Virus record (IMG/VR): IMGVR_UViG_3300045988_170206
Location: 32,001 to 96,000 of that record
Strand: one strand, 5' to 3'
DNA: 64,000 bases
Source of the DNA: a virus
Shown piece after piece: positions 5,927-44,143 of the stretch (positions are counted from its first letter, which is position 1; every line of letters begins with the position of its first letter). The notes under the pieces were generated by a model, which worked only from the letters and a program-made list of their open reading frames with translations, was not told the origin of the DNA and made no database searches. A program made the position numbers and the translations under genes.

Positions 5927-5940
5927 TTGCTTAACCTTTC

Positions 5941-7780: not shown

Positions 7781-7804
7781 TCTTCGGTGTCTTTCTGTGT
7801 CGAT

Positions 7805-8569
7805 TCAGATGATCTGGAACGATGTGTACGGGGCGATTCCGAGCCTGTAGATCAGCCAGCCCAGGAGTCCTAGGTTGACTGCGTGCAGGATGTTGAACAC
7901 GATCTTCTTCTCCCAAGTGCCACCAGTGGAGAAGAAGCCGGGCTCGCCCTTTCGTCGGGGTTTGACGTGAGGGATTATTTTGATCCGTTCGGGCAGGATC
8001 TTCTTCCTGAGTATCACTCGGTTGATGAAGAGTCCCGTTGCGAACGGTAGTCCCTCGGGGGTGAGGAGGTCGAGGGTGAGGTGGGCGATGAGGCCCATGA
8101 TGATGCCGGTGAGTACAAGCTGGGTTAGAGCCTCCCCTAGGTTGGTCGTGAGTGGATTAAGTTGCGTGAGTGCTCCGAAGAGGAGCAGGAATGGCAACTC
8201 GCTGTGGGTCTGCCAAGACCTGTGCTTACAGTCAAGGATACTGAGTATCTGCGCCGTTCGTGACTTACGGGGCGCAATGTCACGCAGTGGTCGCGTGAGG
8301 TGCAGGATATGGCTGATTGTCCTGGATACGGGATCCTGGGAGGGGATCGTGTGGCCTGAGCGTTCGCCGGCGAGCTTCACTTCATCCCACACGCTGCCGG
8401 GGTGGTGGTCAAGGTCGCTTGCTGTGGATCCCCACAGGGCGAAGGGGTAGAGGACGACCAGTGAGGCGAGCGGGGCTGCTTCAATGAGTGGCGCGTGGTG
8501 TGCTGCGAGGGCCGTGTAACCGATCATGCACGCTGCTGCGCCTCCGGCGCGGTGGGTTGCTCCCTGCAT
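7805..8569 (-). CDS. YdjM/DUF457-like membrane-bound metal-dependent hydrolase
   Basis: N-terminal MQGATHRAGG and SDLDHH motifs on a multi-TM body resemble the DUF457 family. Recalled by eye only. Confidence 0.45.
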   Translation of the reverse strand: MQGATHRAGGAAACMIGYTALAAHHAPLIEAAPLASLVVLYPFALWGSTASDLDHHPGSVWDEVKLAGERSGHTIPSQDPVSRTISHILHLTRPLRDIAPRKSRTAQILSILDCKHRSWQTHSELPFLLLFGALTQLNPLTTNLGEALTQLVLTGIIMGLIAHLTLDLLTPEGLPFATGLFINRVILRKKILPERIKIIPHVKPRRKGEPGFFSTGGTWEKKIVFNILHAVNLGLLGWLIYRLGIAPYTSFQII

Positions 8570-9057
8570 TAGGCTGTGGCCTCCTGTAGGTCGTTGAAGC
8601 GCTGACGGAAGGCAGGGTTAACGCATGTGCGGAACGTGGTGTCGGTGCCGTCCCATTTGGCGACGGCGGTTGCCCGGTTGAATCGGACTTTCCCGGTGTC
8701 GCTGACGTGGAGTGCGCCGATACCGCGGAGGACTGCGCGCCCCGACGTGGCGAGCTCTCGGATGATGGCGTTCGCGTATGCGGCGAGCACCATGCGGGCG
8801 AGTTCAATGTCGTAGCCGTAGTCGGCTGCGAAGGCTGCGTACTGGGCCTCGAGGGGCTGTCGCTCGTTCAGCCCGTAGCTGGGGGTGCCGTTGGAGAACT
8901 CGATGATGCCGAGGTAGCTGACGGTGGTTGGCTGGGTAGCGCTGGTTGCCTGGCTGGCCGTCCATTCACCGTATCGGGTGATGATCTCGTGTGCGAGGGC
9001 GTGGCTGACCTGGCATGTTTCCGCTGTCTGTCGGATGCGGGGGGTTCTGACGGTCAT
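8569..9057 (-). CDS. Hypothetical protein, possible HU/IHF-like fold in the C-terminal half
   Basis: 162-aa ORF coupled at both ends. ..IIRELATSGRAVLRGIGALHVSDTGKVRFNR.. resembles the HU arm region. Weak. Confidence 0.6.
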   Translation of the reverse strand: MTVRTPRIRQTAETCQVSHALAHEIITRYGEWTASQATSATQPTTVSYLGIIEFSNGTPSYGLNERQPLEAQYAAFAADYGYDIELARMVLAAYANAIIRELATSGRAVLRGIGALHVSDTGKVRFNRATAVAKWDGTDTTFRTCVNPAFRQRFNDLQEATA

Positions 9058-9347
9058 GCGAACTCCAGGGTCTTGATGGAGGCGTAGTACTTGGTGCGTA
9101 CCTCCGTGTCCTGCCAGATGTTGTATGTGGCCATGATCTTGGGGTCGGACATGGCCTGAATGACGGCGGCTTCCTCTGCTGTCCGGGTGATGTCGAACTC
9201 GAGCACGTCTCCGTTAGTGGGGACGTGCTCCTTGAGCATGGTGAGGAGTGCGTCTGCTGTGGATGCGGAGACGCGCGCGCTTTCGGTGGCCTGGCGGCGG
9301 CTGTTAGGCATGAAGCGCTGCTTGAACACTTCCTTGAAGGTGCTCAT
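9054..9347 (-). CDS. Hypothetical protein (97 aa)
   Basis: ORF in operon register, overlaps the downstream gene by 4 nt, G/C-rich third positions. Confidence 0.65.
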   Translation of the reverse strand: MSTFKEVFKQRFMPNSRRQATESARVSASTADALLTMLKEHVPTNGDVLEFDITRTAEEAAVIQAMSDPKIMATYNIWQDTEVRTKYYASIKTLEFA

Positions 9348-9422
9348 GGGCTTCCTTTCTGGCGGGTGCGGGGGCGACGCTCCCCACTGTTGTTTGGCGG
9401 ATGAGCGTCGCCCCGGTGGGGG

Positions 9423-10370
9423 TTAGAAGATCTGGGACAGGATCCAGTAGAGAACCTGGCTGAGGCCGTTGCCGAAGGCGATACCGGTATCAACAAGGAC
9501 GCTGGACAGGACCAGGAGAATGATCGCTACGCCGAGGGCTACGAGCTCGAGTGCCTGCTTCTGGAGGTAGTAGCGGATCGGCGTGATGGGCTTCGCGCTG
9601 CCTCCAACCTGCTGCGGGGCCCCGCCGAAGCTGCCGGGCATCATTGCGCCCATCTGGTTACCAGAGGGGCCTCCGCGTTCGCCAGACTCGGCCATCTCGA
9701 CTGCCTGAATAGCTGCGGCGGGGATAACTCGGATGCCTTTGAGCCAACCGCCCTGCGCCTTTGCACCACCGTTGGGGTTACCGCTCATGCCCATGCCCAT
9801 TCCCATGGAGTTCGCGCCGGACTGGCTTCCGGTGCCGTTGCCGTACATGCCACCCGAGAGGATGGTGCGGATGAAGCCGATACTGACGGCGACGTAGAAC
9901 AGGCCAAGCATGTTGCTAACTGTGACGAGCGCGATCATGATGCTGAGAAGCCAGCCGATAGCAAAAGAGAGGAAGCCCAGGAGTGGGCGGGCGCTCTCTG
10001 CGCCCTGCTTGACGCTCTCATCGTCGGTCCAACCGCCCGACAGCCAGCCGCCCTTGTCCTTCGAGTGGTCGGTTTTGACCAGCGGATCATTGCCGGGGTT
10101 GGTCACGTCGATCTGGGGCTTGGATGGGCCGCTGCTACCCTGCGTGGGCTGCGGCTGGTTGGGGGTCTGCTGCGTGCCCTGCTGAGTAGTGCCGGGCGCT
10201 TGCGTGGGCTGTGGGGTGGGCGTGTTGGTGTTCGCGTCACTGTCGTAGGCGGCGACGACTCCCTGCGTGGGGGCGGCGAGGGCTGCGCTAACGGCTGTTC
10301 CGGTGGCTGCTGGGGCCACGATGAGGGCGCATGTCAGAGCAGCGCGTGTGATCGCGGGGGCGAGTTTCAC
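9423..10370 (-). CDS. Secreted/membrane protein, divergent paralog C (Pro/Gln/Thr-rich ectodomain, TM hairpin, Gly/Met-rich loop, terminal TM)
   Basis: Signal peptide MKLAPAITRAALTCALIVAPAATG. Same C-terminal topology as 5941-6723 and 6815-7780. Confidence 0.7.
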   Translation of the reverse strand: MKLAPAITRAALTCALIVAPAATGTAVSAALAAPTQGVVAAYDSDANTNTPTPQPTQAPGTTQQGTQQTPNQPQPTQGSSGPSKPQIDVTNPGNDPLVKTDHSKDKGGWLSGGWTDDESVKQGAESARPLLGFLSFAIGWLLSIMIALVTVSNMLGLFYVAVSIGFIRTILSGGMYGNGTGSQSGANSMGMGMGMSGNPNGGAKAQGGWLKGIRVIPAAAIQAVEMAESGERGGPSGNQMGAMMPGSFGGAPQQVGGSAKPITPIRYYLQKQALELVALGVAIILLVLSSVLVDTGIAFGNGLSQVLYWILSQIF

Positions 10371-10447
10371 GGCAGGCGTTCCTTTCTTGCGGTTGATGGG
10401 TGTGGGGTAAGAGCGTTGACGACCGTGCGGGGATACGTCTTGCTCTG

Positions 10448-11239
10448 TCAGTCGCCGCTGTCGGGGTAGAGGTCGGAGAACAGCTTCGACATCTTCGCTG
10501 ATTCCTCAGCCACCTTCTGTTCTCGGCTCTTCTTGGGGGCAGGTGGGTTGTCGGCGGCGTTGTAGCCGAGTGGTGCGAACTTGGTCCCCTCGAACTCGGG
10601 GCGTAGAGCTCTATAGCCCTTGGCCTTGAAATACTGAACCCCTTCGCTTTCCTCGTATCCTTCCGTCTGGACGTAGTTGAGGACGGGGATCTCGGGATAC
10701 AGGCCGATGAGCGTCTTGGCTCCCATGGCGCGAGTGTCGGGGCGCAGGAGGACTGCGCTGGGGCGACTGTCAGGGCCGGAGCCGCGGCCCCATCGCGCCT
10801 CGATCATGAGAGCCTGCTCCTGGTCGATGTCCGGGTTCTGGCCGGTAATGCGTGTGCCGACCTTTCCTGCGAATGCGGCGAGTTCCCCTCGCGTGAGGTC
10901 GAAGTCTGTGTCCGCTTCGATGTTCTTGTAGCGTGTGGGGTCTTCGACTGCGTAAGCGTCGCGCCGGAACTTGTCTCCTGTTCCGAAGTCGGGGATGCGC
11001 AGCGGGACGTTGGTGTGGAACCTGTATCCGACGACCGTGCCCCGCTGTGGCGTACCGTCGGGGTTCTTCTTACCGGGGATCACCTTGGATGGGTCGGTGA
11101 TGAGGCCAACGAGGTAGATCTCGTCCGCGAGTGCCTTGAGGTTCTGGGCGGCAGGAGCGTCTTCGACGCGCTTGAGCACGTCTCGTTTCGTCATGCCCTT
11201 CGAGCGGGCAATGTGTGGAGGTGTGATTGGTGTCGGCAT
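10448..11239 (-). CDS. Hypothetical soluble protein (263 aa)
   Basis: Long ORF in operon orientation. No TM and no motif recognised. Confidence 0.75.
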   Translation of the reverse strand: MPTPITPPHIARSKGMTKRDVLKRVEDAPAAQNLKALADEIYLVGLITDPSKVIPGKKNPDGTPQRGTVVGYRFHTNVPLRIPDFGTGDKFRRDAYAVEDPTRYKNIEADTDFDLTRGELAAFAGKVGTRITGQNPDIDQEQALMIEARWGRGSGPDSRPSAVLLRPDTRAMGAKTLIGLYPEIPVLNYVQTEGYEESEGVQYFKAKGYRALRPEFEGTKFAPLGYNAADNPPAPKKSREQKVAEESAKMSKLFSDLYPDSGD

Positions 11240-11326
11240 GAATATGGCCTTTCGTGCGGAGGTAGTTTCTGCGTGTTTATCTCCATTATCCCCTATGGGA
11301 TCGTGTTGCGGTGTGTACGGCGCTCG

Positions 11327-11959
11327 TTAGCGGACGATAGCGATGCGACCGTCCTGATCGACTCGGTACTGCACGTCAATGAGGGAGCCTGATTCGTAGG
11401 AGTCGTACTGGCTCTTGGTAACGACATAGTCGACGGTACCGCCCTGCGCAGCTTGGGGGATGTTGGGGATGTTGATGCGCAGGGTGAAGACCAGCTGACC
11501 GTTGACTGCGGTGATGTCTTTCCCGATGACGACGGCACGCGCCTGCTGTGCCGGTGCGAACGTCAGACTGTTGGGGTCGATGGTCGCGTTTGGTGTCGGC
11601 TGCGCGGGGGTGGCTGGTGCTGTGGTTGCAGGGTCTTGCGTGGGTGTCTGCTGGGAGGGTGCCGGCTGCGGGGCTGCTGTCGTGTCGGGTGCGGGGATTG
11701 TGGGTGCGATGGTTGCTTGCGGCGTGGAGGCTTCTGCCCCTGCGTTGGCGGGGGTGCTGTGCCAGTTTTTGAGGCCGATAGCGACCACGAGGGCCACGAG
11801 GATCACGAGGGCGAGCGTGATGCTGCCGAGGATCACGGTGCGCGCGTTGCGCTTCTTCTCCACTTCGGGAGCTGGCTCGTCTGCGGTGGGGAGTGTCGTT
11901 GTCTCGTAGGTGTCTTCGTCGGCGACTGGGAGATCCCAGAAGTCATCGTTGTTGTCCAT
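11327..11959 (-). CDS. Single-pass membrane protein with a Pro/Thr/Ala-rich linker and a small C-terminal beta-rich domain
   Basis: Acidic N-terminus, TM ILGSITLALVILVALVVAIGL, PT-rich stretch. Confidence 0.75.
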   Translation of the reverse strand: MDNNDDFWDLPVADEDTYETTTLPTADEPAPEVEKKRNARTVILGSITLALVILVALVVAIGLKNWHSTPANAGAEASTPQATIAPTIPAPDTTAAPQPAPSQQTPTQDPATTAPATPAQPTPNATIDPNSLTFAPAQQARAVVIGKDITAVNGQLVFTLRINIPNIPQAAQGGTVDYVVTKSQYDSYESGSLIDVQYRVDQDGRIAIVR

Positions 11960-12197
11960 TGGGGGTGTCCTTTCTGAGTGTTCCGTATCGGCGTGTGGTC
12001 CTGCACGCCTGTTCGTATTTGCGCCATGCGATTTGGCGCAGGACGGCTTTCGGATTGATTGCGGGGTCGGGGGTGAGGATGTCGCGGGCTTCTGCGAGCT
12101 CGGCGAGGGCGTGGGGGCCTTCTTGTTCGGCGGCGCGCGCGGGGAGGCCTACGTCGTTGATGGGGGCGACCCATAGGCTCGTGTAGTCGTCGATCAT
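11943..12197 (-). CDS. Small hypothetical protein (84 aa)
   Basis: MIDDYTSLWVAPIND... The ATG overlaps the upstream stop as ATGA, and its 3' end overlaps the next start by 17 nt. Fills an otherwise non-coding gap in the operon. Confidence 0.5.
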   Translation of the reverse strand: MIDDYTSLWVAPINDVGLPARAAEQEGPHALAELAEARDILTPDPAINPKAVLRQIAWRKYEQACRTTRRYGTLRKDTPNGQQR

Positions 12198-12958
12198 AGT
12201 TCGCTCACTCTCACTTGCGCTTGGAGGTGGAGGATCACCTGCTGGGGTGTGGTGAAGTCGGGGTGCGCGTTGAGGATCGCGACGATGAGGGGCAGGGGGA
12301 TGTGGGCGCTGCCGGAGGCCATGTTCTCGGCCCATTCTGCGAAGGAGTAGCCCTGGCGCTTGTAGGCTGACAGGTTGAGGTTCACGGTGCCTGTTGCGTG
12401 GGTTTCGCGTACTGCTCCGACGCGGAGTCCAGCGTCCATGAGGGCACGTAGTCGGCGCATGTGGGCGGTGAGTGCCTGCTGTTTGCCCTGGGGTGGGAGC
12501 TTGGCCCATTGGAGGAGGTCAGCGTCGATAGCGAGTGCTGGTTCCATGAGATCCACCCATGAGAACAGGTCCGTGTAGGTGGAGCTGTAGGGAGCGTTGT
12601 GGAGGATGTTGAGGGCGGGCGCGTACCAGGTGGCGGGGTTGCGTGTTGGTAGGAGAGTGTCGGGGGCCGTGTGCTTCAAGGGGCTGGGCGCGTGGTCTTG
12701 GAAGGCGACGTAGTAGAACTCTGAGCGCAGGGCTGCGTTGTTGTGCCCGTAGGGGCGGTTGCGGGGATCCTTAGCGGCTTCTGGCGTTGGGGAGATCGGC
12801 GCGCTGCCTGGACCGGCTGGCCCCATTGCTGGGGGCTGCGGGATGGGTGCTGTAGGGACAATCGGGCCGGAGAGGACGCTCTGGGGGCCGCGGAGTGTGA
12901 AGGTTTTGTTGTGGCGCACGAAGATTCGTAGCGCACTTTTGATGCTAGTAGAGGTCAT
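12194..12958 (-). CDS. Hypothetical protein (254 aa)
   Basis: Long ORF in operon register, overlapping its neighbours. Confidence 0.7.
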   Translation of the reverse strand: MTSTSIKSALRIFVRHNKTFTLRGPQSVLSGPIVPTAPIPQPPAMGPAGPGSAPISPTPEAAKDPRNRPYGHNNAALRSEFYYVAFQDHAPSPLKHTAPDTLLPTRNPATWYAPALNILHNAPYSSTYTDLFSWVDLMEPALAIDADLLQWAKLPPQGKQQALTAHMRRLRALMDAGLRVGAVRETHATGTVNLNLSAYKRQGYSFAEWAENMASGSAHIPLPLIVAILNAHPDFTTPQQVILHLQAQVRVSEL

Positions 12959-14911: not shown

Positions 14912-15023
14912 GACTTCCCTTCCTGCATTGACGTTACCGTATAAAGAATATCATCTGTCTAGGGTTTTCCAGATGAATTGCTGCTGTTTGTCCCGTGTTA
15001 TGTAGTCGATTTTGAGGCATGGG

Positions 15024-15068
15024 GAAGCCCCGCGCTTCGCAGCATGTGGCCGGTCAGCGCGGGGCTTC
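15024..15068 (-). terminator. GC-rich hairpin just after the shaft-pilin stop (terminator/attenuator)
   Basis: Perfect 12-bp inverted repeat GAAGCCCCGCGC (15024-15035) / GCGCGGGGCTTC (15057-15068) with a 21-nt loop. No clear U-tract. Confidence 0.45.
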
Positions 15069-15080
15069 AAGAGGCAGGGG

Positions 15081-16727: not shown

Positions 16728-16752
16728 GGAGAAGGTTCCTTTCTTTTGGGGG

Positions 16753-18999: not shown

Positions 19000-19082
19000 A
19001 TCTGCTCCTTCTGGCTGATGTTTCCTGAACAATCCTAGCATTTTCCAGGTGCCCCTCTTCTACTTGTATCGGGGCATGTCGA

Positions 19083-22100: not shown

Positions 22101-23535
22101 CTGCGCCGTAGAAGTCGATCTGGTGGCGCGTGCCGTCGGTGAACTCGGACGCGGGGATCGTGAAGGTGTACTTGTTGTCGGCTTCGCGGGTGGGGGCGAT
22201 GGGGCGACCGTCGAAGATGAGGCTCATGCCGCGCGGGGAGAGGGCCTGGTCGTCGCTGAATGTGAACGTCAGGTCTTCTGTGGGGGCGGAGGTGAGCCAG
22301 TACTGGCCGTCGCCGAGGGTCTTGGCGTTGGTGATCGCGTCGGGGACGGTGAGGGTGGGGATGGTGGAGTCCACGGCTACCACGTCGGTGTCGCCGCCGG
22401 TGAAGGCGCTGAGACCGACCTCGTTGGTGAGGCCTGCTTCGTCCATGGTCTGTACCTTGTAGGTGCCTGCTTCGGTGATCGTGAATGTGAAGTTGCCGCC
22501 CTGGCGCTTGAGGGTGGTGACAACTTCGCCGTCCTTGACGAGCTCCACGGAGTACACGCCCGATGGGCTGTCGGTGGCGGTGCCGCTGATGGTGACGTTG
22601 CCGGAGGTGGCGTAGTCGCCGTATGCGTTGACCTGGCCTCCGGTTGCGCGGAGGTTGGAGAACTGCGGGCCTTCGTCGTCGTAGGGGACGTTGATGGACT
22701 GGCTGGCGGTGCGGCCAAACTCGTCGGTGATGCGCAGTGTGGCCTTGCTGGGCTTGCCAGTCAGGTTGATGGTGGCGGTGGTGCCGCTGACGCTCACCGA
22801 GTAGCCCTCATCGGTCGTTGCGGACACGATCTGCGTGTCGGAGCTGATCGTTGCCGTGAGGGCGGGGATGGTTGTGTAGAAGCCCCATGCGGGGCCGGTG
22901 GCCGGGTCGAGCATCATGGCTGTGATCGACGGTTCGCCGACGGTGGTGTGTGCGCCGAGCGTGAAGGTCGTGTTGTCCCACGTGACGGTGGGGGTACCGG
23001 ACGCGGGGACGCGACTGGTGCCGACAGTGTAGGAGCCGTCCGCGAGCGCGAGCGCGCCGGAGTCCGTGGGGATGACTCCGGTCATGGTGATGGGTGTTGC
23101 TCCGGTGTTGGTGGCGAGGATGCCCGCAGCGTACACGCCCTTGTCGGTGTGGACGATGTAGACGATGCGTGTGGGGGCTGTGATGTCGGTGGGGAGCTGG
23201 TTCACGCCCGCTGTCCCCTGGCCTGCTGCGGTGAGCGCGCCGGAAGCGTCGTAGCGGCGCATTTCGACGCTGGTGATCGTTGCGCCGGATTGTGGGGCGA
23301 TGGTGGCGGTGCCCCGCCACTTGCGAACCTGCGAGTAGTTGCCGAGGTCGAAGTCAACGGACGCTGTAGGGGCGGGCGCTGCGGTGACGGCTGCGGGTGC
23401 GACGGTGGCGGCGGGCTGGGTGGTGCCGAAAGCGTTGGTGGCGAGCGCTGCGGGTGCGACGGTGGTGGTGGCTGTGGCGAATGCCAGGAGGGCAGCGATG
23501 CGCACTGTCGTCTTGGTCGTCTTCCGGGGAGTCAT
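19144..23535 (-). CDS. Giant surface adhesin (1463 aa) built of tandem Ig-like modules
   Basis: Signal peptide. At least 8 modules of about 90-110 aa, each ending in a (T/A)Dx(A/V)GNx(S/T) motif (TDLAGNVS, TDKVGNIS, TDQAGNPS, TDMAGNVT...). C-terminal TM followed by RRRKNADN. Confidence 0.8.
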   Translation of the reverse strand: MTPRKTTKTTVRIAALLAFATATTTVAPAALATNAFGTTQPAATVAPAAVTAAPAPTASVDFDLGNYSQVRKWRGTATIAPQSGATITSVEMRRYDASGALTAAGQGTAGVNQLPTDITAPTRIVYIVHTDKGVYAAGILATNTGATPITMTGVIPTDSGALALADGSYTVGTSRVPASGTPTVTWDNTTFTLGAHTTVGEPSITAMMLDPATGPAWGFYTTIPALTATISSDTQIVSATTDEGYSVSVSGTTATINLTGKPSKATLRITDEFGRTASQSINVPYDDEGPQFSNLRATGGQVNAYGDYATSGNVTISGTATDSPSGVYSVELVKDGEVVTTLKRQGGNFTFTITEAGTYKVQTMDEAGLTNEVGLSAFTGGDTDVVAVDSTIPTLTVPDAITNAKTLGDGQYWLTSAPTEDLTFTFSDDQALSPRGMSLIFDGRPIAPTREADNKYTFTIPASEFTDGTRHQIDFYGADRGLHRTSWTGTISTSTSQATINATVRNPGDMNVTPYGVFSRTPIQVQLTPQGGGGLAQTYNDPSSGMTVSPDGVATITGSVNDPTVTVTDPLGRSQTLHVATALGWPSKHAAVDTQAPTMTTDITATDGTWFSSTSGAINSFTAHDDNGIATMTATVNGTQVATVNPSDKAGEAATTGTLDVDYAKAARAEDGSYQVTITMTDLAGNVSARNYTFYVDDQAPTITNFVVVNPSYAPGKTINGSDRYGLFVQGATRIKAQVSDPAPSSGMGNALMTFYTPSGTVIRTESAPINSGVAEFDIPSGFKGFVSATATDKVGNISDSQRPDGLVSEDSNTTITSTDLSVELGAPAATNSAGVPLYKDSASGTLTAVATHSGIRTLTWGYGDTTLGTATVSPDGQVDNPAVQVTATDKNLVTGVSVPLTLAGEYPAQDVWIHVADNAGYEAETRRTISVDATAPELTVTFDQTNQSGFYNTDRHATVTVRDNNFDPGSLTTTGLVGTWGTWVHSGDTWTNTITFSDNTDYDFTLSAADMVGHQSNTFTSGRFTVDKVAPVVSVAWNTTDVRNGKYYNQVRTATITVVEEHFDPALNQLTGTGSISGWSSVGSTHTATVTFPEGVHTFGFRTTDQAGNPSNEVTEGEFIVDTTKPEISISGLTKGTAYYQLPTVGVTYSDTNADTSSVTAVLVGRKGNVFKPAVSGGYLDLSEIPDEAKYDDLYTLTIKGTDLAGNDQTASVEFILNRYGSNVDVTGTNYQGRYLQAPVDVDLEETTVEALNEDKTDIKVTLDGAPYPVAPALQSTTRTGGDAGDYVYAYHIDKAAFQKEGTYLIQVVSQTEGGLDQVSRLSYSFVVDSTNPELQVSGIRTDAAYRSESRDFTVTPRDMTTVTLEAQVDGKPMQLLSDENGIYTGTLPQSTSAHTVVLKATDMAGNVTETTISDVYVNASTFGQVINWIRHHVLATSAAGGILAAAAALIVLARRRKNADN

Positions 23536-23560: not shown

Positions 23561-24211
23561 TTATTGCCAACTATGGGCTTCTGCTACCAAGGTTACGCGA
23601 CTGAGCGGGTCGGTTGGCTGCGCGGATGGTTGTGGCGCAAGGTTTGCGGCAGGAATCTCGGTGTCCTCGAAGAAGGCAGTGTCTGCTTCTTCGGTGGTTT
23701 CCGTGCTTGCGTCTGAGAAGAACGTGGTGTCGTCGTCTTCTCCGACGTTAGCGGAGCGCTCGAGCGGTGCCGGTGCGGGTGGCTGTGTGGTTCGCGTGGG
23801 GGTGTCTGCGACCTGTAGGGGTGCAGGCTGAGCTGGCGCAGGCTTGGGGGCGGCAATGGGCGCAGGGGCGACTGTGGTGGGCTGTGGTGGGGTTGGGGTG
23901 AGGTCGCCGGAGAGCACGCCGCTTGTGTCGTCGGCGAGTGTACCGCTATCGAACGAGTCACTGTTCGTCGCGTCGTTCAGGGGCGAGTGTTCACCGAGAG
24001 ATAGGGCGGACATCTTGCGGTACGCTTCGACGGCTCCGTCGCTACTCAGTGTCGAGGTGAGGGTTTCAACGGTGTCGGTGAACGCCTGTCCCTTGAGTTC
24101 CCTGCGTGCTGCTGGGATGTCCCATTGGAAGAACAGGATGAGAGCGGTGAAGAACAGGATGAGGGCTGCGACTGCGAGGCCGATTGCCGTTGCGGTGAAT
24201 ACGGTCATCAC
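23561..24211 (-). CDS. N-terminally anchored protein with a Pro-rich, acidic cytoplasmic tail
   Basis: TM IGLAVAALILFFTALILFF. ATGA overlap with the kinase stop. Confidence 0.7.
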   Translation of the reverse strand: MMTVFTATAIGLAVAALILFFTALILFFQWDIPAARRELKGQAFTDTVETLTSTLSSDGAVEAYRKMSALSLGEHSPLNDATNSDSFDSGTLADDTSGVLSGDLTPTPPQPTTVAPAPIAAPKPAPAQPAPLQVADTPTRTTQPPAPAPLERSANVGEDDDTTFFSDASTETTEEADTAFFEDTEIPAANLAPQPSAQPTDPLSRVTLVAEAHSWQ

Positions 24212-25920
24212 TTGGTGGCTCCTTCGGCTGCGTACACAGCATCGACGAGGGTGCGGGACTGGTCGAGCTTCGTGGAGAGCTGGGCTGACAGTTCAGCCGG
24301 TCTTCCTGGTGTCGGGTTGGGGTGCTGCGTGAGGTAGTCTTTCGCGCGCTCGAGCTGCGCGTCAACGTCGGCTTTGGGCACGCCGTCGGTTCGGAGCCTG
24401 TATGTGTAGTTGTTGATGCAGTCCACGATGTAGTTGAGGAGCTGCAACTGTACGACCTCGCCGGAGTTGTCGGTGTTGAGGCTGGTGAGGTTGTTCCAGT
24501 AGGCCCGGTACATGCCGGTGTCGCTGCTGGTTTGGATCGCGGATGCGATGTCGCGGTTGAACGAGCCCATGTTGTAGAGGGCGCTCGCCTGTTCGACGTT
24601 GTAGTTGCCGCTGATCGCGTCCTTGAACCATGGGGCGGATAGGGCGAGGCCGTCGGCGTTTGCGTCGCTGGTGTAGAAAAACCAGTAGAGTTCACCGATC
24701 TGGTAAGCGAGCTCAGGGTAGCGCGGGTTGTCCTGAATGTCCTTAATGTGTTCGCGGACGAGGGGGATGAAGGCAGCTTCCTCAGCGGAGGTGAACCTGC
24801 CGTCTCCCTGCTTGATGGCGGTAATCGTGTCGAAGTATGAGTCGATGTTGGAGGGGCGCGCGTTGATGACTGGCTCCCACGCTTCGACGGTGCCGGCTTT
24901 TTGGGCAGCGCTGGTTAGTGCTGCGTAGGAGTTCGCGTCGGCGTTGGCCCCGTAGGTGTAAGTGCCCGCTGACGCTATTGACATGACGAGGGCTGCTGCT
25001 GCGAGCGCGCCGACGGTGCGGATGCGCCTGCGGTGCTTGGCTCGGTGACGACTATCGGCGGTCTTGTAGGTGTTGAGCGCAGCGATAACTTCGACCATGG
25101 ACGAGTAGCGGTCATCTGGGCGCAGGGCGACACATTTGGCGATCACGTCGGAGAGGGCGCGGCTAACTTCGGGGTTGGCTGCGTGCGCGTCCACGGGGCC
25201 TGTGGGGATGCCCCTGCGGTCGGACGCGGGAAGGTCGCCGACGAGGAGCTGGTACATCGTCATACCGAGGCTGTAGATGTCGCTTCGGATGTCGAGCGGC
25301 GCGCCCTTGGTGATCTGCTCGGGGGGCGCATATCCCTTGGTGCCGAGGGCGTGGGTGTTGATCTGATTGTCAGGGGTGATGACTTCGGCCAGGCCGTAGT
25401 CCATGAGCACCATGGAACCGTTCTGGTACATGATGTTCTTCGGCTTGATGTCGCGGTGGACGACAGGGCCGGGGTGAATATGTGGCGGGAGGGTGTGGAG
25501 GTACTGGAGGATGGTGGCGACCTGCACCATCTTGGAGACAACGAACTGCTCACTGAACCGGCCTTTGTCGGTGCGCTTGGCCGCATCAGCGAGGTCGTAG
25601 CCGCCGATGTAGTCCATGAGGACGGAGTACTTGCCACCCGGCTTGTCGGTACGATCTCGCACGTCGAGGATGCGAGGAATACCGGGGTGGGTGAGGGGCT
25701 GCATGAGGCGCGTTTCGCGCTTGAGGCTATCAACGGCGATTTTGCCGCGGCCTTTAGGGTCGGGGACGGGAGCTGCAACCTCTTTGAGGACGACGAGCTT
25801 ACCGTTCTTAGCGTCGGAAACTCCGTACACCTGGCTAAAAGTGCCGTTGTGGAGTACGGAGCTGATGACGTAGCGGTCCCCCTTGCCGAAGGTTGAGCCC
25901 TTTTTGCGCAGGTTCGTCAT
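24208..25920 (-). CDS. Hanks-type Ser/Thr protein kinase with one TM and an extracytoplasmic domain of about 250 aa that is not PASTA
   Basis: VVLKEV (Lys), HRDIKPKN, DYG, GTKGYAPPE. TM VGALAAAALVMSIASAG. Start MTNLRKKG overlaps the PP2C stop (ATGA). The track ORF extension to 26073 is rejected. Confidence 0.9.
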   Translation of the reverse strand: MTNLRKKGSTFGKGDRYVISSVLHNGTFSQVYGVSDAKNGKLVVLKEVAAPVPDPKGRGKIAVDSLKRETRLMQPLTHPGIPRILDVRDRTDKPGGKYSVLMDYIGGYDLADAAKRTDKGRFSEQFVVSKMVQVATILQYLHTLPPHIHPGPVVHRDIKPKNIMYQNGSMVLMDYGLAEVITPDNQINTHALGTKGYAPPEQITKGAPLDIRSDIYSLGMTMYQLLVGDLPASDRRGIPTGPVDAHAANPEVSRALSDVIAKCVALRPDDRYSSMVEVIAALNTYKTADSRHRAKHRRRIRTVGALAAAALVMSIASAGTYTYGANADANSYAALTSAAQKAGTVEAWEPVINARPSNIDSYFDTITAIKQGDGRFTSAEEAAFIPLVREHIKDIQDNPRYPELAYQIGELYWFFYTSDANADGLALSAPWFKDAISGNYNVEQASALYNMGSFNRDIASAIQTSSDTGMYRAYWNNLTSLNTDNSGEVVQLQLLNYIVDCINNYTYRLRTDGVPKADVDAQLERAKDYLTQHPNPTPGRPAELSAQLSTKLDQSRTLVDAVYAAEGATK

Positions 25921-26618
25921 GCTAGTCCTTCCGTTGAGGCGAGTAAAGCGGTGATGTTGTCCTGTTCTCCCGCTGTTTGTGCGCGCGTAGCGAGGTCGTT
26001 GAGGCCTGCTTCTGTGAGAGCGTCGAGCTTGTTGCCGACGGCCTCGTAAGCGTGCCAAAACCCGTCTGAGCATAGGAGGAATGTGTCGCCACTCTGGTAG
26101 GTGCCGGTGTAGATGTCAGGGGTGTGACCGTCGGCTTTGGGCTTTCCGAGTGCGCGGGTGATGCGGCTGGCGTAGGTGCGGGCGATGTCGGGGGTGATGG
26201 TGACTCCGCGGCGCTTGAAGGCGTTGAGGGCTGAGTGGTCCTCGGTGAGCTGTGTGCCCTCGAGGGTGCCTGCTGGGATCTTGTAGGCGCGGGAGTCGCC
26301 GATTTGGAGGATCCAGTACTGGCCGTCGTAGAGGCGTAGGAGGGTGAGAGTTGTACCTCCTCCCGTGTCGGTGACCTTCTGGTGGGCGGTGGTGACGGCT
26401 TCGATGAGGGTGTCGTCAGTGATGTCTCCGGCCTTGATTGCGTCCATGTAGGTGCGGGCGGCGCTTTGGGAGGCTTGTGCGCCGTTGGCGACTCCGCCCA
26501 TGCCGTCGGCGATGAGTGCGAGGATGCCGGTCTTGCCGTCGGCGGTGAAGGTGGCCCAGGCGTAGGTGTCCTGGTTTTCTTTTCGTTGGTTGCGGTGGGT
26601 GATCGTGTGGACGCTCAT
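25917..26618 (-). CDS. PP2C-family Ser/Thr phosphatase
   Basis: RKENQDTYAW, ADGMGG and CSDGFWH motifs. Confidence 0.85.
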   Translation of the reverse strand: MSVHTITHRNQRKENQDTYAWATFTADGKTGILALIADGMGGVANGAQASQSAARTYMDAIKAGDITDDTLIEAVTTAHQKVTDTGGGTTLTLLRLYDGQYWILQIGDSRAYKIPAGTLEGTQLTEDHSALNAFKRRGVTITPDIARTYASRITRALGKPKADGHTPDIYTGTYQSGDTFLLCSDGFWHAYEAVGNKLDALTEAGLNDLATRAQTAGEQDNITALLASTEGLA

Positions 26619-27733
26619 GCCTGCTCCTTGACGACGTTGAAGGCGACGTGGCCGAGGCGTAGGAGTGCGCCGTCGGGGACGATGGTGGGGGTGTGTGGTT
26701 GGAGGCGGTGTGCGCCGATGTGGGTACCGTTCTTGGAGCCCAGGTCGGTGACGATGACTTGGCCGTCCTGCTCGTAGATCTGGGCGTGGCTGCGGCTGAG
26801 GCTGCTGTCGCGGCTGACGCTGATCTCGCTGCGTGTGGAGGAGCGCCCGATGATGACGGGGCGGGTGAGGATCGGCCAGCTTTCCTCTGTGGTGAGGCTG
26901 TGGAGGCTGTAGGTCGTGGCCGTGGGTTCGTCGTCGTCGAAGAAGCCGGTCATGTCGTCTTCGTTGGTTGCGGCGGATGCTACCGGCTTGGGTACGACAG
27001 GCGCAGGGGCGACGGGCGCGGGGGCAGGTGCGGGGCGCACCGGGGTTTCGACAACTGGAGTTGGCGCGGGAGCCGGTGCTAGAGGTGGCGTAACCGGCGC
27101 GGGGGACTGAACGATGGGGGCCGGTGGGGCTGGAGGTTCAGGGAGCGTCGGCGCAGGGAGAGCTGCTTGTGGCTGTGGCGGCTCTGGGGCTACTACCGGC
27201 GGGGCTGGCGGCTGCGGGGTGGACGCACGGTCGAACAGGGACTTGCGTGCGGGTTGTGGGGTCATCATGGCCTCGAGCTCGGCCACCGCTGACTGTTCGA
27301 CGGCTGGGATGCTCTTGTCCTTGACTGATGAGCGTAGGGCTGCTGCGAGAGCGTCGGGAGTGCCGATGGTCGCGAGAGGACCGTTGGCGGGGGCAACGAT
27401 CTGGCTGAGCGTTACGGGCGACAGGTTGGTGGATACGAGGCGAGGTCCGCCGTTTGCGAGCGCCGCCCAGTGTGGTGCGACCTTGGGCATGATGAAGGTC
27501 CACAGGTTGAAGGTGGGGTTGTCCTGCGGCGGTGCGACGGCGACCCAGAAGTCGCCTTGGCCGTTGGTGACGATGCCGGTTGCTGTGCGGTAGTCGCCTC
27601 CTTCACGGATGAAAGCTCGCCACACGTTGATGATGCCGTCGAGGGAGGCTTTCCCGTTGAGGGTTTCGACGGGGGCGAGTCCGAGCTGCTGTGCGTGGGC
27701 TGCGGGGACGGCTGTCATTGGGGTGATGGTCAT
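26615..27733 (-). CDS. FHA-domain protein (N-domain, Pro/Ala-rich linker, C-terminal FHA)
   Basis: IIGRSSTRSEISV..SLSRSHAQIYEQDGQVIVTDLGSKNGTHI. Start MTITPMTAV lies just after the upstream stop. The track extension to 27952 is rejected. Confidence 0.85.
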   Translation of the reverse strand: MTITPMTAVPAAHAQQLGLAPVETLNGKASLDGIINVWRAFIREGGDYRTATGIVTNGQGDFWVAVAPPQDNPTFNLWTFIMPKVAPHWAALANGGPRLVSTNLSPVTLSQIVAPANGPLATIGTPDALAAALRSSVKDKSIPAVEQSAVAELEAMMTPQPARKSLFDRASTPQPPAPPVVAPEPPQPQAALPAPTLPEPPAPPAPIVQSPAPVTPPLAPAPAPTPVVETPVRPAPAPAPVAPAPVVPKPVASAATNEDDMTGFFDDDEPTATTYSLHSLTTEESWPILTRPVIIGRSSTRSEISVSRDSSLSRSHAQIYEQDGQVIVTDLGSKNGTHIGAHRLQPHTPTIVPDGALLRLGHVAFNVVKEQA

Positions 27734-27740: not shown

Positions 27741-29222
27741 TCACTTTCCGCTGGAGGGGTTTCCGGCGAGGACGCGGAACCAGATCGGATTGGTGGATCG
27801 GTCGTAGGAGGCTCCCCAGATGAGGTAGAGCTCGGAGAGTCGCGTAGAGGAGGTCCAGGACTCGAGAGTCCCAGATTCACCTGGCGCGAGGGTAACGCTG
27901 TTCGTGAGGCCGTACACGGTGCCGGTCCTGGTGTAGGGGTTGCGTGTGGCATCGACGAGGGTGTCGTCGGGGGTGAGTGTGATGGTCTCGGTGCCGAGGT
28001 TGCGGACCTTGAACGTGTAGAAGGCGTACTGCACTTCGCTCGCTTCGACGAAGCCTCGGTTTTGTGCAGACTTTTGGCTCATGGCGCGGAATGCGTCGGG
28101 GCCGGTGAGGAACGCACTGAGGGTAACTTCGATGGGGGTGTCGGTACCGTCGGTGGTTTTGACGACGACGGGCGTGTTCAGACCTGCGGGAGCGTTGAAG
28201 GTGCCATCTCCAACTCGGGGGAGCGCGCTCGTATCAGGCAGGGATCCGTCTTGTCCTGCACTGGTGAGGGCGTGTGCGCCGATCCAGTTGGGCTCGGTGT
28301 AGTAGTTATCCGCGTATTTGCGGCTGGTTTTGGCTTCTTCGGTGTCTTCGTCGCGCGTGGTGGCGGTAGTATGCTCGGGATCGAGAGCGTCTACGGCGAG
28401 TTCGCTGAATGTGTCTTGGAGCTTGTGGAAGCTGTCGGACGCGAACAGGGTGTCATCCATATACACGTCCTCAGCGCTGGAGAGTCGGCAGGAGGAGCCG
28501 AGGCCGGTGCCGGTGCAGTCCATGACGGGAGGGCGGCTGACGGTGGTCGTGGGGAGGTTGGCGGCGTTGGCTGCAATGTAGCTGGCGAACGCATCCGTGA
28601 CTTTACGGCTGAACTCCACGTCGCTGATCGACGTGAGCTTCGCTTTGGCGAGCGCGTCCTTCACGCCGGTCTTGTCGAGGGTGACTGCCCCGTAGTCTAC
28701 GAGCTGGAAGTCCACGTTCTCACCGTTGTTGAGCGTCGAGGGGGCGGTGGTGGGTTTCCAGGTGAAGGGGTTGCGGTGGGGCTGGCCTGTCCAAGTGAGC
28801 TGCCCAGTTTCAGGAAGCTGGTAGGTGACGGTGGCGAGGATGGCTCGCACGGCGTTGGTGCGTGCTTCGTTACCGTTGAGGTAGTCGTACTCCCGCGCCA
28901 CCCAGGACTGCTCGATGACCGAGTTGAGTCCGTCGGTGTCGAAGTCGTGGAGGGCCGTCATGTAGGGCACGAACGTGGAGGTGCCTTTAGCGGCCTCGGG
29001 GAGGCTCTTCGCCGGCGGGACAATGACCCCGAAGTAGGTGCCGATCAGTGCGACGGGCACTAGGGCGATGAGGGAGCGCTTGAGGAGCTTCTTCTTTCCG
29101 CGCTTCTTCTTGGCTGACGTTGCAGGTGTAGCGGGTGACCCCCACGAGTCCCAGGCCTCGCCTTGCGCGGGCACGTTGTTCTGCATGGGGGTGGTGGGGA
29201 TGTTGGTGTCCCAAGAAGCCAT
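27741..29222 (-). CDS. Single-pass membrane protein with a large ectodomain (C-terminal DUF4352-like Ig fold)
   Basis: KKKRGKKK followed by TM LIALVPVALIGTYFGVIV. C-terminal FKVRNLGTETITLTPDD...LAPGESGTL pattern. Confidence 0.7.
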   Translation of the reverse strand: MASWDTNIPTTPMQNNVPAQGEAWDSWGSPATPATSAKKKRGKKKLLKRSLIALVPVALIGTYFGVIVPPAKSLPEAAKGTSTFVPYMTALHDFDTDGLNSVIEQSWVAREYDYLNGNEARTNAVRAILATVTYQLPETGQLTWTGQPHRNPFTWKPTTAPSTLNNGENVDFQLVDYGAVTLDKTGVKDALAKAKLTSISDVEFSRKVTDAFASYIAANAANLPTTTVSRPPVMDCTGTGLGSSCRLSSAEDVYMDDTLFASDSFHKLQDTFSELAVDALDPEHTTATTRDEDTEEAKTSRKYADNYYTEPNWIGAHALTSAGQDGSLPDTSALPRVGDGTFNAPAGLNTPVVVKTTDGTDTPIEVTLSAFLTGPDAFRAMSQKSAQNRGFVEASEVQYAFYTFKVRNLGTETITLTPDDTLVDATRNPYTRTGTVYGLTNSVTLAPGESGTLESWTSSTRLSELYLIWGASYDRSTNPIWFRVLAGNPSSGK

Positions 29223-29231
29223 GTCTTTTCC

Positions 29232-29858
29232 TTACCCGAATATGTTGCTGAAGAAGGTATCTGCGTTCGCCGTGTCTTCCGGCTCTGGTTCCGGCTCTGG
29301 CTCGTCTGCCCTGTGGGGCGATGGAGTGTCGTCGATGCGGGGGGCGAAGTCGTCCTCGTTGTCACCCGTGGGGAACACCCAAGGGCTCACAGCGTTAGAA
29401 CCAGTTGTTTCCACCTGAACCTGTTGGGGTTCTTGGGGTTTTTGCTGGGTTCTGAGCAGTTCTCGGACGAGGGATTCAAGCTCGTCCATACGGTCGTCCT
29501 TCTTGGGCTGTGCCTGTGGGGCCTGAACGACGACCTGCGGTTGTACGGGCGCAACCTGCTCGAAGTAGCTTATCCCCTGCTGTGTGCGCATGGTGAGTGA
29601 GTCAAGCATGAACTGGAGGCGGTCGTTCTCCCGCTGCGCTTCATCCAGGGCTGTTTGGAGCTGAGCGCGCTCGAAGTCTTCCTCGTAGCCGAGCATGACG
29701 TTGACGATGCGTCGCACTTCCTCATTGTCGCGGTAAGCGGTCAGTAGGGTGATGACGAGGGGGGATGCCTGCCGTTGCTGAGCGAACGGGCGGATCACGT
29801 CGTCGTAGATGTCCTGCGGGAGGCCCTTGACGACCAGTGTGTGTTTACTCGATGACAT
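29232..29858 (-). CDS. Hypothetical protein with a ribbon-helix-helix-like N-terminus and a coiled coil (ParR-like adaptor candidate)
   Basis: KHTLVVKGLPQDIYDDVIRPFAQ fits a beta-strand/helix RHH start. The rest is a coiled coil and an acidic tail. Inference only. Confidence 0.65.
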   Translation of the reverse strand: MSSSKHTLVVKGLPQDIYDDVIRPFAQQRQASPLVITLLTAYRDNEEVRRIVNVMLGYEEDFERAQLQTALDEAQRENDRLQFMLDSLTMRTQQGISYFEQVAPVQPQVVVQAPQAQPKKDDRMDELESLVRELLRTQQKPQEPQQVQVETTGSNAVSPWVFPTGDNEDDFAPRIDDTPSPHRADEPEPEPEPEDTANADTFFSNIFG

Positions 29859-31206: not shown

Positions 31207-31307
31207 GCTGGGCTCCTTCCTATGTGGTGGGGCCTCCGCGCCCCTACCTGTTCGACTGGGTGAGCAGGGGGCCAGTGAACCGTGGGGGCGCGGAGGGGCT
31301 TGTGGGA

Positions 31308-37078: not shown

Positions 37079-37318
37079 TCAGTTGTTGCGCACGGTGTAG
37101 CGCAGTGGGTGGCGGTCGTGGATGAGGACGGGGCGGGCGAGTGCTTCCTTGAGGCGCTGGTGTGCGTTGTTGAGTTCTTGGAAGGCGTGGGGGTCGCCGC
37201 CCCTGTCGGGGTGGAGGGTGCGAGCTCGGGCGCGGAACGCTCGGTTGAGGTCGGCGAGGGTCGCGGTGGAGGTCACGCCGAGGAGCTTGAGGTCGTGGGG
37301 GTTAGGGCGGGGGGTCAT
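37079..37318 (-). CDS. Stand-alone J-domain protein (79 aa)
   Basis: LLGVTSTATLADLNRAFRARARTLHPDRGGDPHAFQELNNAHQRL with the HPD tripeptide. ATGA overlap with the giant ATPase gene. Confidence 0.85.
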   Translation of the reverse strand: MTPRPNPHDLKLLGVTSTATLADLNRAFRARARTLHPDRGGDPHAFQELNNAHQRLKEALARPVLIHDRHPLRYTVRNN

Positions 37319-41895: not shown

Positions 41896-42089
41896 GAGGA
41901 CTCTACCTTTCCGTTGTGGTCGCAGGTGTTCAGTGTGTGAGTGTTAGTGCTGGCGGGATGGTGCCCGTAATGCAGGGCACCCCCACCCATCGAGCGCTTG
42001 TCTCGCTGGTTGCGTCACCTGGTGGCAATAGGTGGCGTTCTCGGCGAGGGGCGTATCGGGGTGAGGGTGCGGCCTGTGGGGGACTGGGG

Positions 42090-42248: not shown

Positions 42249-42272
42249 GATGGGTCCTTTGCTTGGTTGGGG

Positions 42273-43499: not shown

Positions 43500-43502
43500 G
43501 CG

Positions 43503-44138: not shown

Positions 44139-44143
44139 AAGCA

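Follow-up and report, generated by a model that had tools for sequence, protein, structure and literature searches.

Two variants of the type VII secretion system (T7SS), T7SSd of Actinomycetota and T7SSe of Bacillota, are the closest described relatives of a gene cassette found in 64,000 nucleotides (nt) of the IMG/VR record IMGVR_UViG_3300045988_170206 (positions 32,001-96,000; this whole stretch is called the window below, and coordinates are those of the window unless stated otherwise). The cassette encodes an FHA-domain protein, a PP2C phosphatase, a receptor Ser/Thr kinase, a small membrane protein and a giant immunoglobulin (Ig)-repeat surface protein, which are very probably homologues of the components TsxJ, TsxF, TsxD, TsxH and TsxI of these variants. 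T7SSd comprises TsdA (a WXG100 protein), TsdC (an EssC-like ATPase with FHA domains), TsdD, TsdH and TsdI. The membrane Ser/Thr kinase TsdD combines a conserved active site with one transmembrane helix and a helical C-terminal region outside the cell, TsdH consists of one transmembrane helix and an unstructured cytoplasmic stretch, and TsdI, of about 1650 amino acids (aa), has a Sec signal, Ig-like domains and, at the C-terminus, a transmembrane helix (PMC11217815). T7SSe adds a YukD-like protein, the PPM phosphatase TseF, TseJ with DUF6382 and FHA domains, and TseK, and no separate FHA protein or phosphatase belongs to the published T7SSd (PMC11217815). TsxC, the ATPase of EssC/EccC type, is a multi-domain member of the FtsK family and contains FHA domains in both variants (PMC11217815). 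The five Tsx components were proposed in 2024 as core parts of new T7SS variants from gene neighbourhoods alone (PMC11217815). The lead to this work (Garrett and Palmer 2024, Microlife) was the Pfam domain DUF6382 on FHA proteins of Firmicutes.

The other relevant system is pXO16 (pBTHD789-1, NC_018516.1), an aggregation-mediated conjugative plasmid of about 350 kb from Bacillus thuringiensis serovar israelensis, whose self-transfer was demonstrated (PMC9673590). A 25-kb tip locus was delimited as its conjugation locus, and a separate agr region is connected with aggregation (pXO16 reviews). For conjugation of pXO16, neither a relaxase nor an oriT is known; the process transfers 'non-mobilisable' plasmids as well as pieces of the chromosome of 791 kb or more, and it requires 10 minutes for the recovery of donors.

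In the window, the cassette is situated within a minus-strand gene array that spans from about 41.9 kb to 0.1 kb (Table 1). A sequence-only reading of this DNA had described an FHA protein, a PP2C, a transmembrane Ser/Thr kinase and a transmembrane/Pro-rich protein encoded by genes overlapping in series, and this succession was confirmed by Pfam for the first three products, by transmembrane prediction and by direct reading of the junctions. The junctions had been given as ATGC(?), ATGA and ATGA. All of them do overlap, and the second is ATGA (25917-25920), but the first also resolves to ATGA (26615-26618) and the third, between the kinase gene and the small transmembrane protein gene, is GTGATG (24206-24211), with GTGA or TGATG and not ATGA as the overlap. 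The triad with its membrane protein, taken there as the unit, turned out to be the core of a five-gene translationally coupled cassette of FHA, PP2C, receptor kinase, small transmembrane protein and Ig protein, where the Ig-repeat protein is the fifth member. The lengths of 372, 233 and 570 aa for the FHA protein, PP2C and kinase are those of gene calls on near-identical metagenome contigs, and the maximal open reading frames reaching 27952 and 26073 are not the genes, because these calls match the shorter coordinates. From 14 to 33 kb, a consensus scan of the coding strand revealed nothing resembling a terminator.

The FHA domain (Pfam, E 1.6e-14) is located at the C-terminus of the first product, at residues 366-434 of the maximal open reading frame, and its phosphothreonine-binding residues GR, SRSH and NGT are present in an alignment with three actinobacterial homologues. 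The N-terminal domain of this protein is conserved in the actinobacterial clade and is not recognisably DUF6382: Pfam gave no match to DUF6382 even at E<=10, and only the FHA domain was aligned by hhalign with the DUF6382-FHA proteins of Firmicutes. The FHA protein of pXO16 carries DUF6382 (29.9 bits vs a cut-off of 26.7). The second product contains a PP2C_2 domain (Pfam, E 1.1e-12), aligns to PstP 1txo with E 3.5e-12 and has conserved metal-binding motifs ENQD, DGMGG, GDSR, CSDG and DNIT; no transmembrane segment was predicted in its 233 aa.

The kinase aligns to PknB 3ori (E 8.5e-24) and has the Lys of VVLKEV, HRDIKPKN and APPE in place, with DYG replacing DFG. A single transmembrane helix (aa 300-318) separates the kinase domain from an extracellular part of about 236-250 aa (residues 335-570), where Pfam found no PASTA repeat, in agreement with the sequence-only reading, which had seen nothing PASTA-like in an ectodomain of about 250 aa. 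The structure prediction proposed there as a check was obtained as an AlphaFold2 model from a five-sequence alignment: it is all-alpha, with 12 helices, a predicted local distance difference test score of 89 and a predicted TM-score of 0.85. Foldseek comparison of the model with PDB yielded weak matches of TPR type only (best E 0.09, query TM-score <=0.47). As modelled, the ectodomain forms a helical solenoid of TPR-like type that has no close relative among solved structures, and it is not a PASTA domain. Using an exhaustive HMMER search with an ectodomain profile, 549 representative clusters were found at E<=1e-3, including 246 at E<=1e-10, with nearly all matches at the C-terminus of proteins of about 550-600 aa; judging by these profile matches, the ectodomain family is a sizeable family of receptor kinases. 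Full-length relatives of the kinase are scarce, namely eight clusters in a word-indexed protein search, all of them metagenomic. When the ectodomain alone was the query, the word-indexed search returned no matches despite an existing 99%-identical protein, and exhaustive HMMER was used instead; a genome collection scanned with the ectodomain profile yielded no relative among 92 pattern matches. With the catalytic and phosphothreonine-binding residues all present, the earlier proposal of a Thr-phosphorylation switch with a membrane receptor kinase is supported at the level of sequence.

The small protein, for which there was no Pfam match, has one strong N-terminal transmembrane helix (aa 10-28) and a disordered tail predicted to be cytoplasmic. 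The 176 aa of this tail include 25 Thr, 17 Ser, 22 Pro and 27 acidic residues. The Ig protein begins with a signal peptide followed by Big_3/Big_13 repeats (Pfam Big_13, Big_3_3, Big_3_2) and ends with a transmembrane anchor and a short basic tail, without LPXTG. Its N-terminal region of about 260 aa is variable and not conserved among relatives.

No match to the region was obtained by megablast in plasmid and phage collections, and a protein-level search was required to find related loci. A search of the annotated plasmid collection with the kinase led to pXO16 (96% coverage, 29.8% identity, E 9e-65) and, with a weaker match, to a record of Agathobacter rectalis; each of the two also encodes an 'Ig-like domain repeat protein' near the kinase match, together with a PP2C and an FHA protein. 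In four relatives of the kinase (99, 53, 44 and 39% identity), the kinase gene is followed by a small single-pass gene and then by the gene of an Ig-like-repeat protein of 1340-1460 aa. Patterns of the Ig protein alone, applied to one genome per species, led to two bacterial loci, those of Ornithinibacillus halotolerans (L014) and of a Lachnospiraceae metagenome-assembled genome (MAG; L015), both with the gene order DUF6382-FHA, PP2C, full-length kinase of the same family, small transmembrane protein and Ig protein. The same order was found in a Clostridiales MAG (L023), and in two more loci reached via the Ig protein (L025 and L026) the contig start cuts the kinase gene, and the kinase, small transmembrane and Ig genes are still in order. 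The 11 lineages considered are thus the window with its near relative L001, further L002, L003, L004, pXO16, A. rectalis, L014, L015, L023, L025 and L026, and the kinase, small transmembrane and Ig genes stand together in 11 of 11. Homologues of the Ig protein itself are BTF1_RS28365 of pXO16 (E 1.6e-118) and the Ig-like proteins encoded in A. rectalis, L002-L004, L014, L015, L023, L025 and L026. A six-sequence alignment of Ig proteins was too divergent for the derivation of patterns and a four-sequence alignment served; a word-index search with the Ig protein gave four matches, two of which were used as T7SS controls. In the Lachnospiraceae locus, DUF5702 and TadE-like genes precede the cassette (L015:51-2789), which suggests an adjoining Tad-type pilus locus, and some T7SS variants adjoin Tad genes (PMC11217815).

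The likeness to the Tsx proteins extends over all five members of the cassette. The kinase resembles TsxD in its active-site residues (with DYG for DFG), single transmembrane helix and helical extracellular region; its homology to the kinase encoded in the EssC locus of A. rectalis covers the kinase domain and most of the ectodomain, and that to the kinases of L025 and L026 covers the parts left on the cut contigs. The small protein shares with TsxH a single transmembrane helix and has a Thr/Pro/Asp-rich tail, and the Ig protein shares with TsxI its very large size, signal peptide, Ig-like repeats and C-terminal transmembrane helix. The PP2C corresponds to TsxF, a cytoplasmic PPM phosphatase of T7SSe and not of T7SSd, and is likewise a PPM phosphatase with no transmembrane segment predicted. 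The counterpart of TsxJ has the FHA domain, but its N-terminal domain is not DUF6382 by either Pfam or hhalign. Because the published T7SSd lacks a separate FHA protein and phosphatase, the composition of the actinobacterial set is T7SSe-like. The A. rectalis locus, which wraps around the record start, combines the cassette with essC, the gene of an EsaB/YukD protein, WXG100 genes and a toxin of LXG and TNT type, and so it corresponds to the T7SSe component list. In L025 and L026, whose Ig proteins are homologous to that of the window, the Ig gene is directly followed by YukD and/or EssC genes.

With EssC of A. rectalis as a tblastn query, matches were obtained directly past the Ig gene on L025 (E 1.6e-117) and L026 (E 4.9e-59), and no match in the window, L001-L004, L014, L015, L023 or the complete pXO16 of 349,599 bp. 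EssC, WXG100 and YukD were absent from Pfam hits of the genes called in the 10 kb that flank the window on either side, and no LXG gene was found in the 64-kb window or these flanks. WXG100 and YukD proteins were found neither among the Pfam hits of L001 and L018-L022 nor by tblastn, a method insensitive for WXG100, and no T7SS proteins are annotated among the pXO16 features examined. The sole FtsK-family proteins are single-domain ones, of 829 aa just beyond the window and of 776 aa in pXO16. Five defining parts are shared, but EssC, WXG100 and YukD were not found in these searches, and so the cassette is not to be filed as a T7SS.

As for the carrier, the window is part of a pXO16-like plasmid with a size of about 140 kb, and the host is probably an Actinomyces-like member of the human microbiome. 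Contigs with identical proteins number hundreds and cluster at 135-150 kb, and the host assignment is based on one database name, that of WP_296530807.1 ('uncultured Actinomyces sp.'), to which the window sortase is identical. The window proteins were compared with the whole pXO16 by local tblastn and by the reverse search. The YdjM-like hydrolase, two paralogues and the giant membrane protein (homologues of RS29445-RS29460, with the hydrolase and paralogues at 224-227 kb of pXO16) and, farther along, the FtsK protein keep their order in pXO16; a wall hydrolase is also among the genes shared with this transfer region, and the 493-aa single-pass protein encoded next to ParM matches RS29890. Beyond the left end of the window, a VirB4-like (DUF87) ATPase and a single-domain FtsK/SpoIIIE ATPase are encoded, as seen in L018-L020. 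In pXO16, the region of 204-230 kb contains its FtsK/SpoIIIE gene; we infer that this region is the experimentally defined tip transfer locus, whose coordinates are not given in the reviews. The earlier view that the module is encoded on a mobile element holds, as the transfer genes are homologous to this FtsK-containing region; that such a location is unusual was overstated, since the same cassette occurs in pXO16 and in four divergent actinobacterial relatives. Transfer was demonstrated only for pXO16 itself, and the actinobacterial plasmid is known from metagenome sequence alone. A phage origin was considered and rejected: PHROG hits were limited to partition, replication and HNH proteins, with no capsid, portal or terminase among the 10 window open reading frames scanned.

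Table 1. Features of the window, with acidic Thr motifs of the window and related loci (positions in nt of the window).
Feature	Position	Strand	Basis or remarks
FHA protein, 372 aa (TsxJ-like)	26615-27733	-	Pfam FHA, homologue alignment
PP2C/PPM phosphatase, 233 aa, catalytic domain only (TsxF-like)	25917-26618	-	Pfam PP2C_2
Receptor Ser/Thr kinase, 570 aa (TsxD-like)	24208-25920	-	Pfam Pkinase
Kinase domain	25036-25875	-	Pfam Pkinase, E 1.7e-36
Transmembrane helix of kinase	24967-25023	-	
Extracellular part of kinase	24211-24918	-	
Small single-pass membrane protein, 216 aa (TsxH-like)	23561-24211	-	Transmembrane helix, composition, position
Transmembrane helix of small protein	24128-24184	-	
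Giant Ig-repeat surface protein, 1463 aa (TsxI-like)	19144-23535	-	Pfam Big families, homologues
Motif DDDTTFFSD, window small protein	23711-23737	-	
Motif EADTAFFED, window small protein	23663-23689	-	
Motif, L004 small protein tail			DTPTGFL, two copies
Motif, pXO16 small protein tail			Five TQ[IL]L-type repeats
Motif, Ornithinibacillus (L014) small protein tail			At least 6 GT[QE]VL
Motif, A. rectalis small protein tail			DETTVL, two copies
Motif, linker preceding FHA domain			Window DDMTGFFDDD; Firmicutes (S/G)(E/T)TTVL; L023 at least 7 EEATGL[LM]D
Class C sortase, pilin (GramPos_pilinD1/SpaA), 762-aa CLIPPER/DUF7507 adhesin	14024-19041	-	Pfam; directly downstream of Ig gene
Conjugation-type backbone	129-14129	-	7 conserved unknown genes, YdjM-like hydrolase, two paralogues, 1628-aa protein, NlpC/P60; syntenic with pXO16 218-227 kb
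YdjM-like hydrolase	7805-8569	-	
1628-aa polytopic membrane protein	1085-5971	-	E 5.6e-140 to BTF1_RS29445
NlpC/P60 hydrolase	129-1088	-	
Upstream backbone, not cassette: ParM/actin-like, 453-aa, 208-aa and 493-aa single-pass proteins	27741-32573	-	Conserved in L003, L004
ParM/actin-like	31308-32573	-	MreB-like_C, phrog_691 partition protein; matches pXO16 RS29905

The small single-pass gene holds the same position in all related loci, and the similarity of its products is weak (30% with L002; the transmembrane region only with L014). The tails are barely alignable across lineages, yet all of them carry a motif consisting of an acidic residue and T-x-hydrophobic-hydrophobic, which is also met in the linker preceding the FHA domain. 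The tails of nine lineages contain 27 motifs vs 2.6 expected and the FHA linkers 21 vs 4.6, and in either case 0 of 2000 composition-preserving shuffles reached the observed number. A stricter form of the motif was found in 4 of the 44 window proteins scanned (18,608 residues), with the small transmembrane protein and the FHA protein among the four. In our opinion, the recurrence of the motif across phyla is a stronger argument than its enrichment statistics. A hydrophobic residue at position +3 is a common preference of FHA domains, and the pattern suggests that these sites are kinase targets and FHA docking sites. The motif is not mentioned in the description of T7SSd and T7SSe (PMC11217815). 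The 208-aa protein encoded two genes upstream of the FHA gene (29232-29858, minus strand) ends in an acidic-aromatic peptide, EDTANADTFFSNIFG; its homologues end in DADAFLASMF and DFDSLLSSINY, so that the C-terminal peptide is conserved and the Thr is not. For this reason, DTFFSNIFG at its C-terminus was dropped as a candidate for an additional phosphorylation site.

The explanation that we prefer, which may well be right and may equally well be wrong, is that a Tsx-homologous cassette on a pXO16-like plasmid, with no EssC found, gates transfer. The Ig protein would span the thick wall, with its variable tip contacting a partner cell or surface, and the kinase would use its ectodomain to sense the condition of the Ig protein, the small membrane protein or the envelope. 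Its targets would then be the acidic T-x-hydrophobic-hydrophobic sites repeated in the cytoplasmic tail of the small protein; their +3 hydrophobic residue would suit FHA binding, and the FHA protein would dock on these sites once they are phosphorylated. Before this, the copy of the motif in its own linker may keep the FHA protein closed in a GarA-like manner. The docked FHA protein would switch on or assemble the FtsK/VirB4-type transfer machine of the plasmid, and the PP2C would reset the switch. Taken separately, the functional coupling of the phospho-switch to the transfer machine is put forward tentatively, with some doubt, and gating of DNA transfer by the cassette is a plausible proposal.

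A number of observations weigh against this explanation. In pXO16, a long distance separates the cassette (55-79 kb) and the transfer region (204-230 kb), the reviews mention no kinase or FHA protein and delimit the 25-kb tip locus, and the cassette is therefore not known as required for pXO16 transfer. About 84 of the approximately 140 kb of the actinobacterial plasmid are covered, and an EssC gene could lie in the other 56 kb or so; WXG100 proteins are too divergent for tblastn to exclude them. A degenerate glycine loop (HNGTFS) marks the kinase of the actinobacterial clade, DYG takes the place of DFG, and the activity of the kinase is thus an assumption. The cytoplasmic orientation of the small protein tail follows from the positive-inside rule only, and the P values for the motif are optimistic, because the motif was defined after the sequences had been seen. 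Finally, in the Clostridiales MAG the cassette has no adjoining secretion genes, which fits a self-contained adhesin or sensor equally well.

Such a self-contained unit for adhesion or surface sensing is a possible alternative, although we consider it unlikely. The Ig protein would be an adhesin or aggregation factor, whose display or attachment signal is tuned by the kinase, PP2C and FHA protein with no coupling to translocation, and the unit would serve the plasmid as an accessory in colonisation or mating aggregates. The cassette adjoins unrelated genes (glycoside hydrolases, MatE) in the Clostridiales MAG and TadE-like genes in L015, other adhesins follow it in the window and in L004, and the unconserved N-terminal region of the Ig protein is what is expected of a binding tip; moreover, aggregation dominates the biology of pXO16. 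However, the contigs around L023 are short, with about 1.2 kb visible downstream, and in most lineages the cassette stands beside an FtsK-family translocation system, of either T7SS or transfer type. The agr proteins were described as LPXTG proteins with collagen-binding B-type domains, which fits the annotated pXO16 surface proteins and sortase at 268-293 kb and not the present cassette, the reviews being without agr coordinates.

It is improbable that the cassette is a part of a complete T7SS, plasmid-borne or assisted by the host, with EssC, WXG100 proteins and toxins encoded in the uncovered part of about 56 kb or in the chromosome, and that it controls toxin export in competition among bacteria and not DNA transfer. 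In the sole published description, the five components are core parts of T7SSd and T7SSe, and in hosts that belong to the B. cereus group a T7SSc is encoded on the chromosome (PMC11217815). The cassette stands beside WXG100, YukD or EssC genes in A. rectalis, L014, L025 and L026. This reading has to be set against the complete pXO16, with no EssC homologue and no T7SS annotation, and against the window and its 10-kb flanks, where EssC, YukD, WXG100 and LXG were not found. In true T7SS loci EssC is encoded directly past the Ig gene, and here this slot is filled by transfer-type genes. In addition, T7SSc has its own kinase and phosphatase (PMC11217815).

A role of the cassette in gating the assembly of the neighbouring sortase-dependent pilus or adhesin, to which the sequence-only reading had linked it, is very unlikely. 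The pilin, sortase and CLIPPER genes do come directly downstream, on the strand of the cassette and without a terminator-like site there, but this block is absent from L002, where the Ig gene is directly followed by homologues of the window genes 12945..8569, and it is also absent beside the cassette in pXO16, L014, L015 and L023. Furthermore, sortase substrates are extracellular and offer no cytoplasmic target for phosphorylation. In the backbone of the plasmid, the pilus block looks like a lineage-specific accessory insertion. A copy of the chromosomal division cluster fhaA/fhaB-pstP-rodA-pbpA-pknA-pknB, acquired passively and named by the sequence-only reading as an orthology that would undo its interpretation, has the same three domain types in a similar order and the closest solved structures (PknB, PstP) in its favour, but it can practically be dismissed, as PASTA is missing and the kinase ectodomain is TPR-like, the NCBIfam models score far below their cut-offs (PknB_PASTA 135 vs 450, FhaB 47 vs 125), the phosphatase is without a transmembrane segment, rodA, pbpA and pknA are absent and the genes overlap directly, and identity outside the family is at most about 35%, in the kinase domain only.

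Other genes of the window also have counterparts in pXO16. The 1526-aa protein (37315-41895, minus strand), listed by the sequence-only reading as an ATPase, has no match in any ATPase family; as a candidate for an EssC-like ATPase it was rejected in the absence of Pfam, NCBIfam, PHROG or PDB sequence matches, and only a variant P-loop, GSRSGKG, and IVFDE were recognised. It is conserved in pXO16 as BTF1_RS28215 (E 4e-58 and 6e-9 in two segments). The 1628-aa product was also rejected as an ATPase, since its hydrophobic segments, about seven in number, mark it as a membrane protein. The gene immediately downstream of that for the 1526-aa protein (37079-37318, minus strand) encodes a J-domain protein of 79 aa that has an HPD motif, and pXO16 encodes a DnaJ-domain protein of 85 aa. 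A 604-aa HNH nuclease protein with a ParB-like N-terminal region (60750-62564, plus strand) is homologous to BTF1_RS28890 (E 1.3e-56). The two paralogues of 260 and 321 aa (5941-7780, minus strand) each match both BTF1_RS29450 and RS29455, so the duplication predates the split of the Bacillus and actinobacterial plasmids. The FtsK/SpoIIIE ATPases L019:18187-20676 and, in pXO16, L011:4229-6559 share an unusual N-terminus with DPF/DPFG repeats, two transmembrane helices and an acidic linker. A TnpB gene (Cas12f1-like_TNB; L018:16907-18475) is inserted between the VirB4-like and FtsK-like genes of L018 and is absent from L019 and L020. The plasmid replication origin is probably situated at 42000-45642: the GC skew changes sign at about 42-43 kb, where gene orientation switches, and the Rep-like gene at 44077-45642 encodes a phrog_270 replication initiation protein (E 2.7e-32).

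The presence of the Tsx set without the secretion ATPase in a conjugative megaplasmid family of two phyla questions the specificity of these components for secretion and points to a reusable module for contact sensing or wall spanning. A bolder proposal, distinctly improbable at present, is that TsxJ/F/D/H/I form a portable Ig and phosphothreonine-switch module which plugs into different FtsK-family motors (EssC in one case, single-domain FtsK-like and VirB4-like ATPases in the other), and that conjugation of the pXO16 type would be a cousin or hybrid of T7SS with the Ig protein as a wall-spanning contact or conduit. If so, contact-triggered Thr phosphorylation could time each transfer event. 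Distributive conjugal transfer of mycobacteria depends on ESX systems and would then be a precedent. For pXO16, called 'terra incognita', with its transfer mechanism unexplained, tractable candidate regulators are now available, namely BTF1_RS28365-28375 (Ig protein RS28365, small protein RS28370 and kinase RS28375), RS28455 (PP2C) and RS28470 (FHA protein). Plasmids similar to pXO16 are not confined to B. thuringiensis, and human metagenomes commonly contain relatives of about 140 kb, represented by hundreds of contigs. The acidic T-x-hydrophobic-hydrophobic motif provides a testable hypothesis on substrates and docking both for the plasmid systems and for T7SSd and T7SSe.

Among known systems, the PpkA/PppA/Fha1 set of the type VI secretion system (T6SS) in Pseudomonas and TssL-Fha of Agrobacterium are similar in that a membrane Hanks kinase, a PP2C and an FHA adaptor are encoded together with a translocation machine. 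In T6SS, a phosphorylated membrane component recruits the FHA protein. The setting here is Gram-positive, the ectodomain and the membrane target are different, and no T6SS families were found in the Pfam and PHROG scans of the main window open reading frames; by analogy, the cassette would work like the T6SS Thr-phosphorylation checkpoint without being a member of that system. The same comparison with T6SS Thr phosphorylation was also drawn for the T7SS variants (PMC11217815). The division cluster FhaA/FhaB-PstP-PknA/PknB provides the closest solved structures of the kinase and phosphatase, and unlike the window it has PASTA domains, rodA/pbpA and a membrane-anchored PstP. In GarA and OdhI, an acidic Thr motif (ETTS) next to the FHA domain acts as a self-binding switch, and the acidic Thr motif in the FHA linker of the window may be regarded as similar to it.

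With pXO16, the carrier shares the ParM-like protein, the variant-P-loop protein of 1400-1500 aa, the HNH protein, YdjM-like hydrolase, two paralogues, giant polytopic protein and VirB4-like and FtsK-like ATPases, as well as the set of kinase, PP2C, FHA protein (with DUF6382 in pXO16), small transmembrane protein and Ig-repeat protein. It differs from pXO16 in phylum, size (about 140 kb here vs about 350 kb) and G+C content (62% in the window), with protein identities of 24-34%, and the FHA, PP2C and kinase genes of pXO16 are separated by 3 and 16 other genes. The difference from T7SSd and T7SSe lies in the absence of EssC/TsxC, YukD/TsxB, WXG100/TsxA and LXG substrates from the findings for the window, its flanks and pXO16, in the location on a plasmid, and in the slot behind the Ig gene, which holds YukD and EssC in T7SS and transfer-type genes in L002 and, behind the pilus insertion, in the window. 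Summarizing these comparisons, it may be concluded that the cassette is best described as the signalling-and-Ig module of T7SSd/e, which is uncoupled from EssC here and built into conjugative plasmids of the pXO16 type in two phyla.

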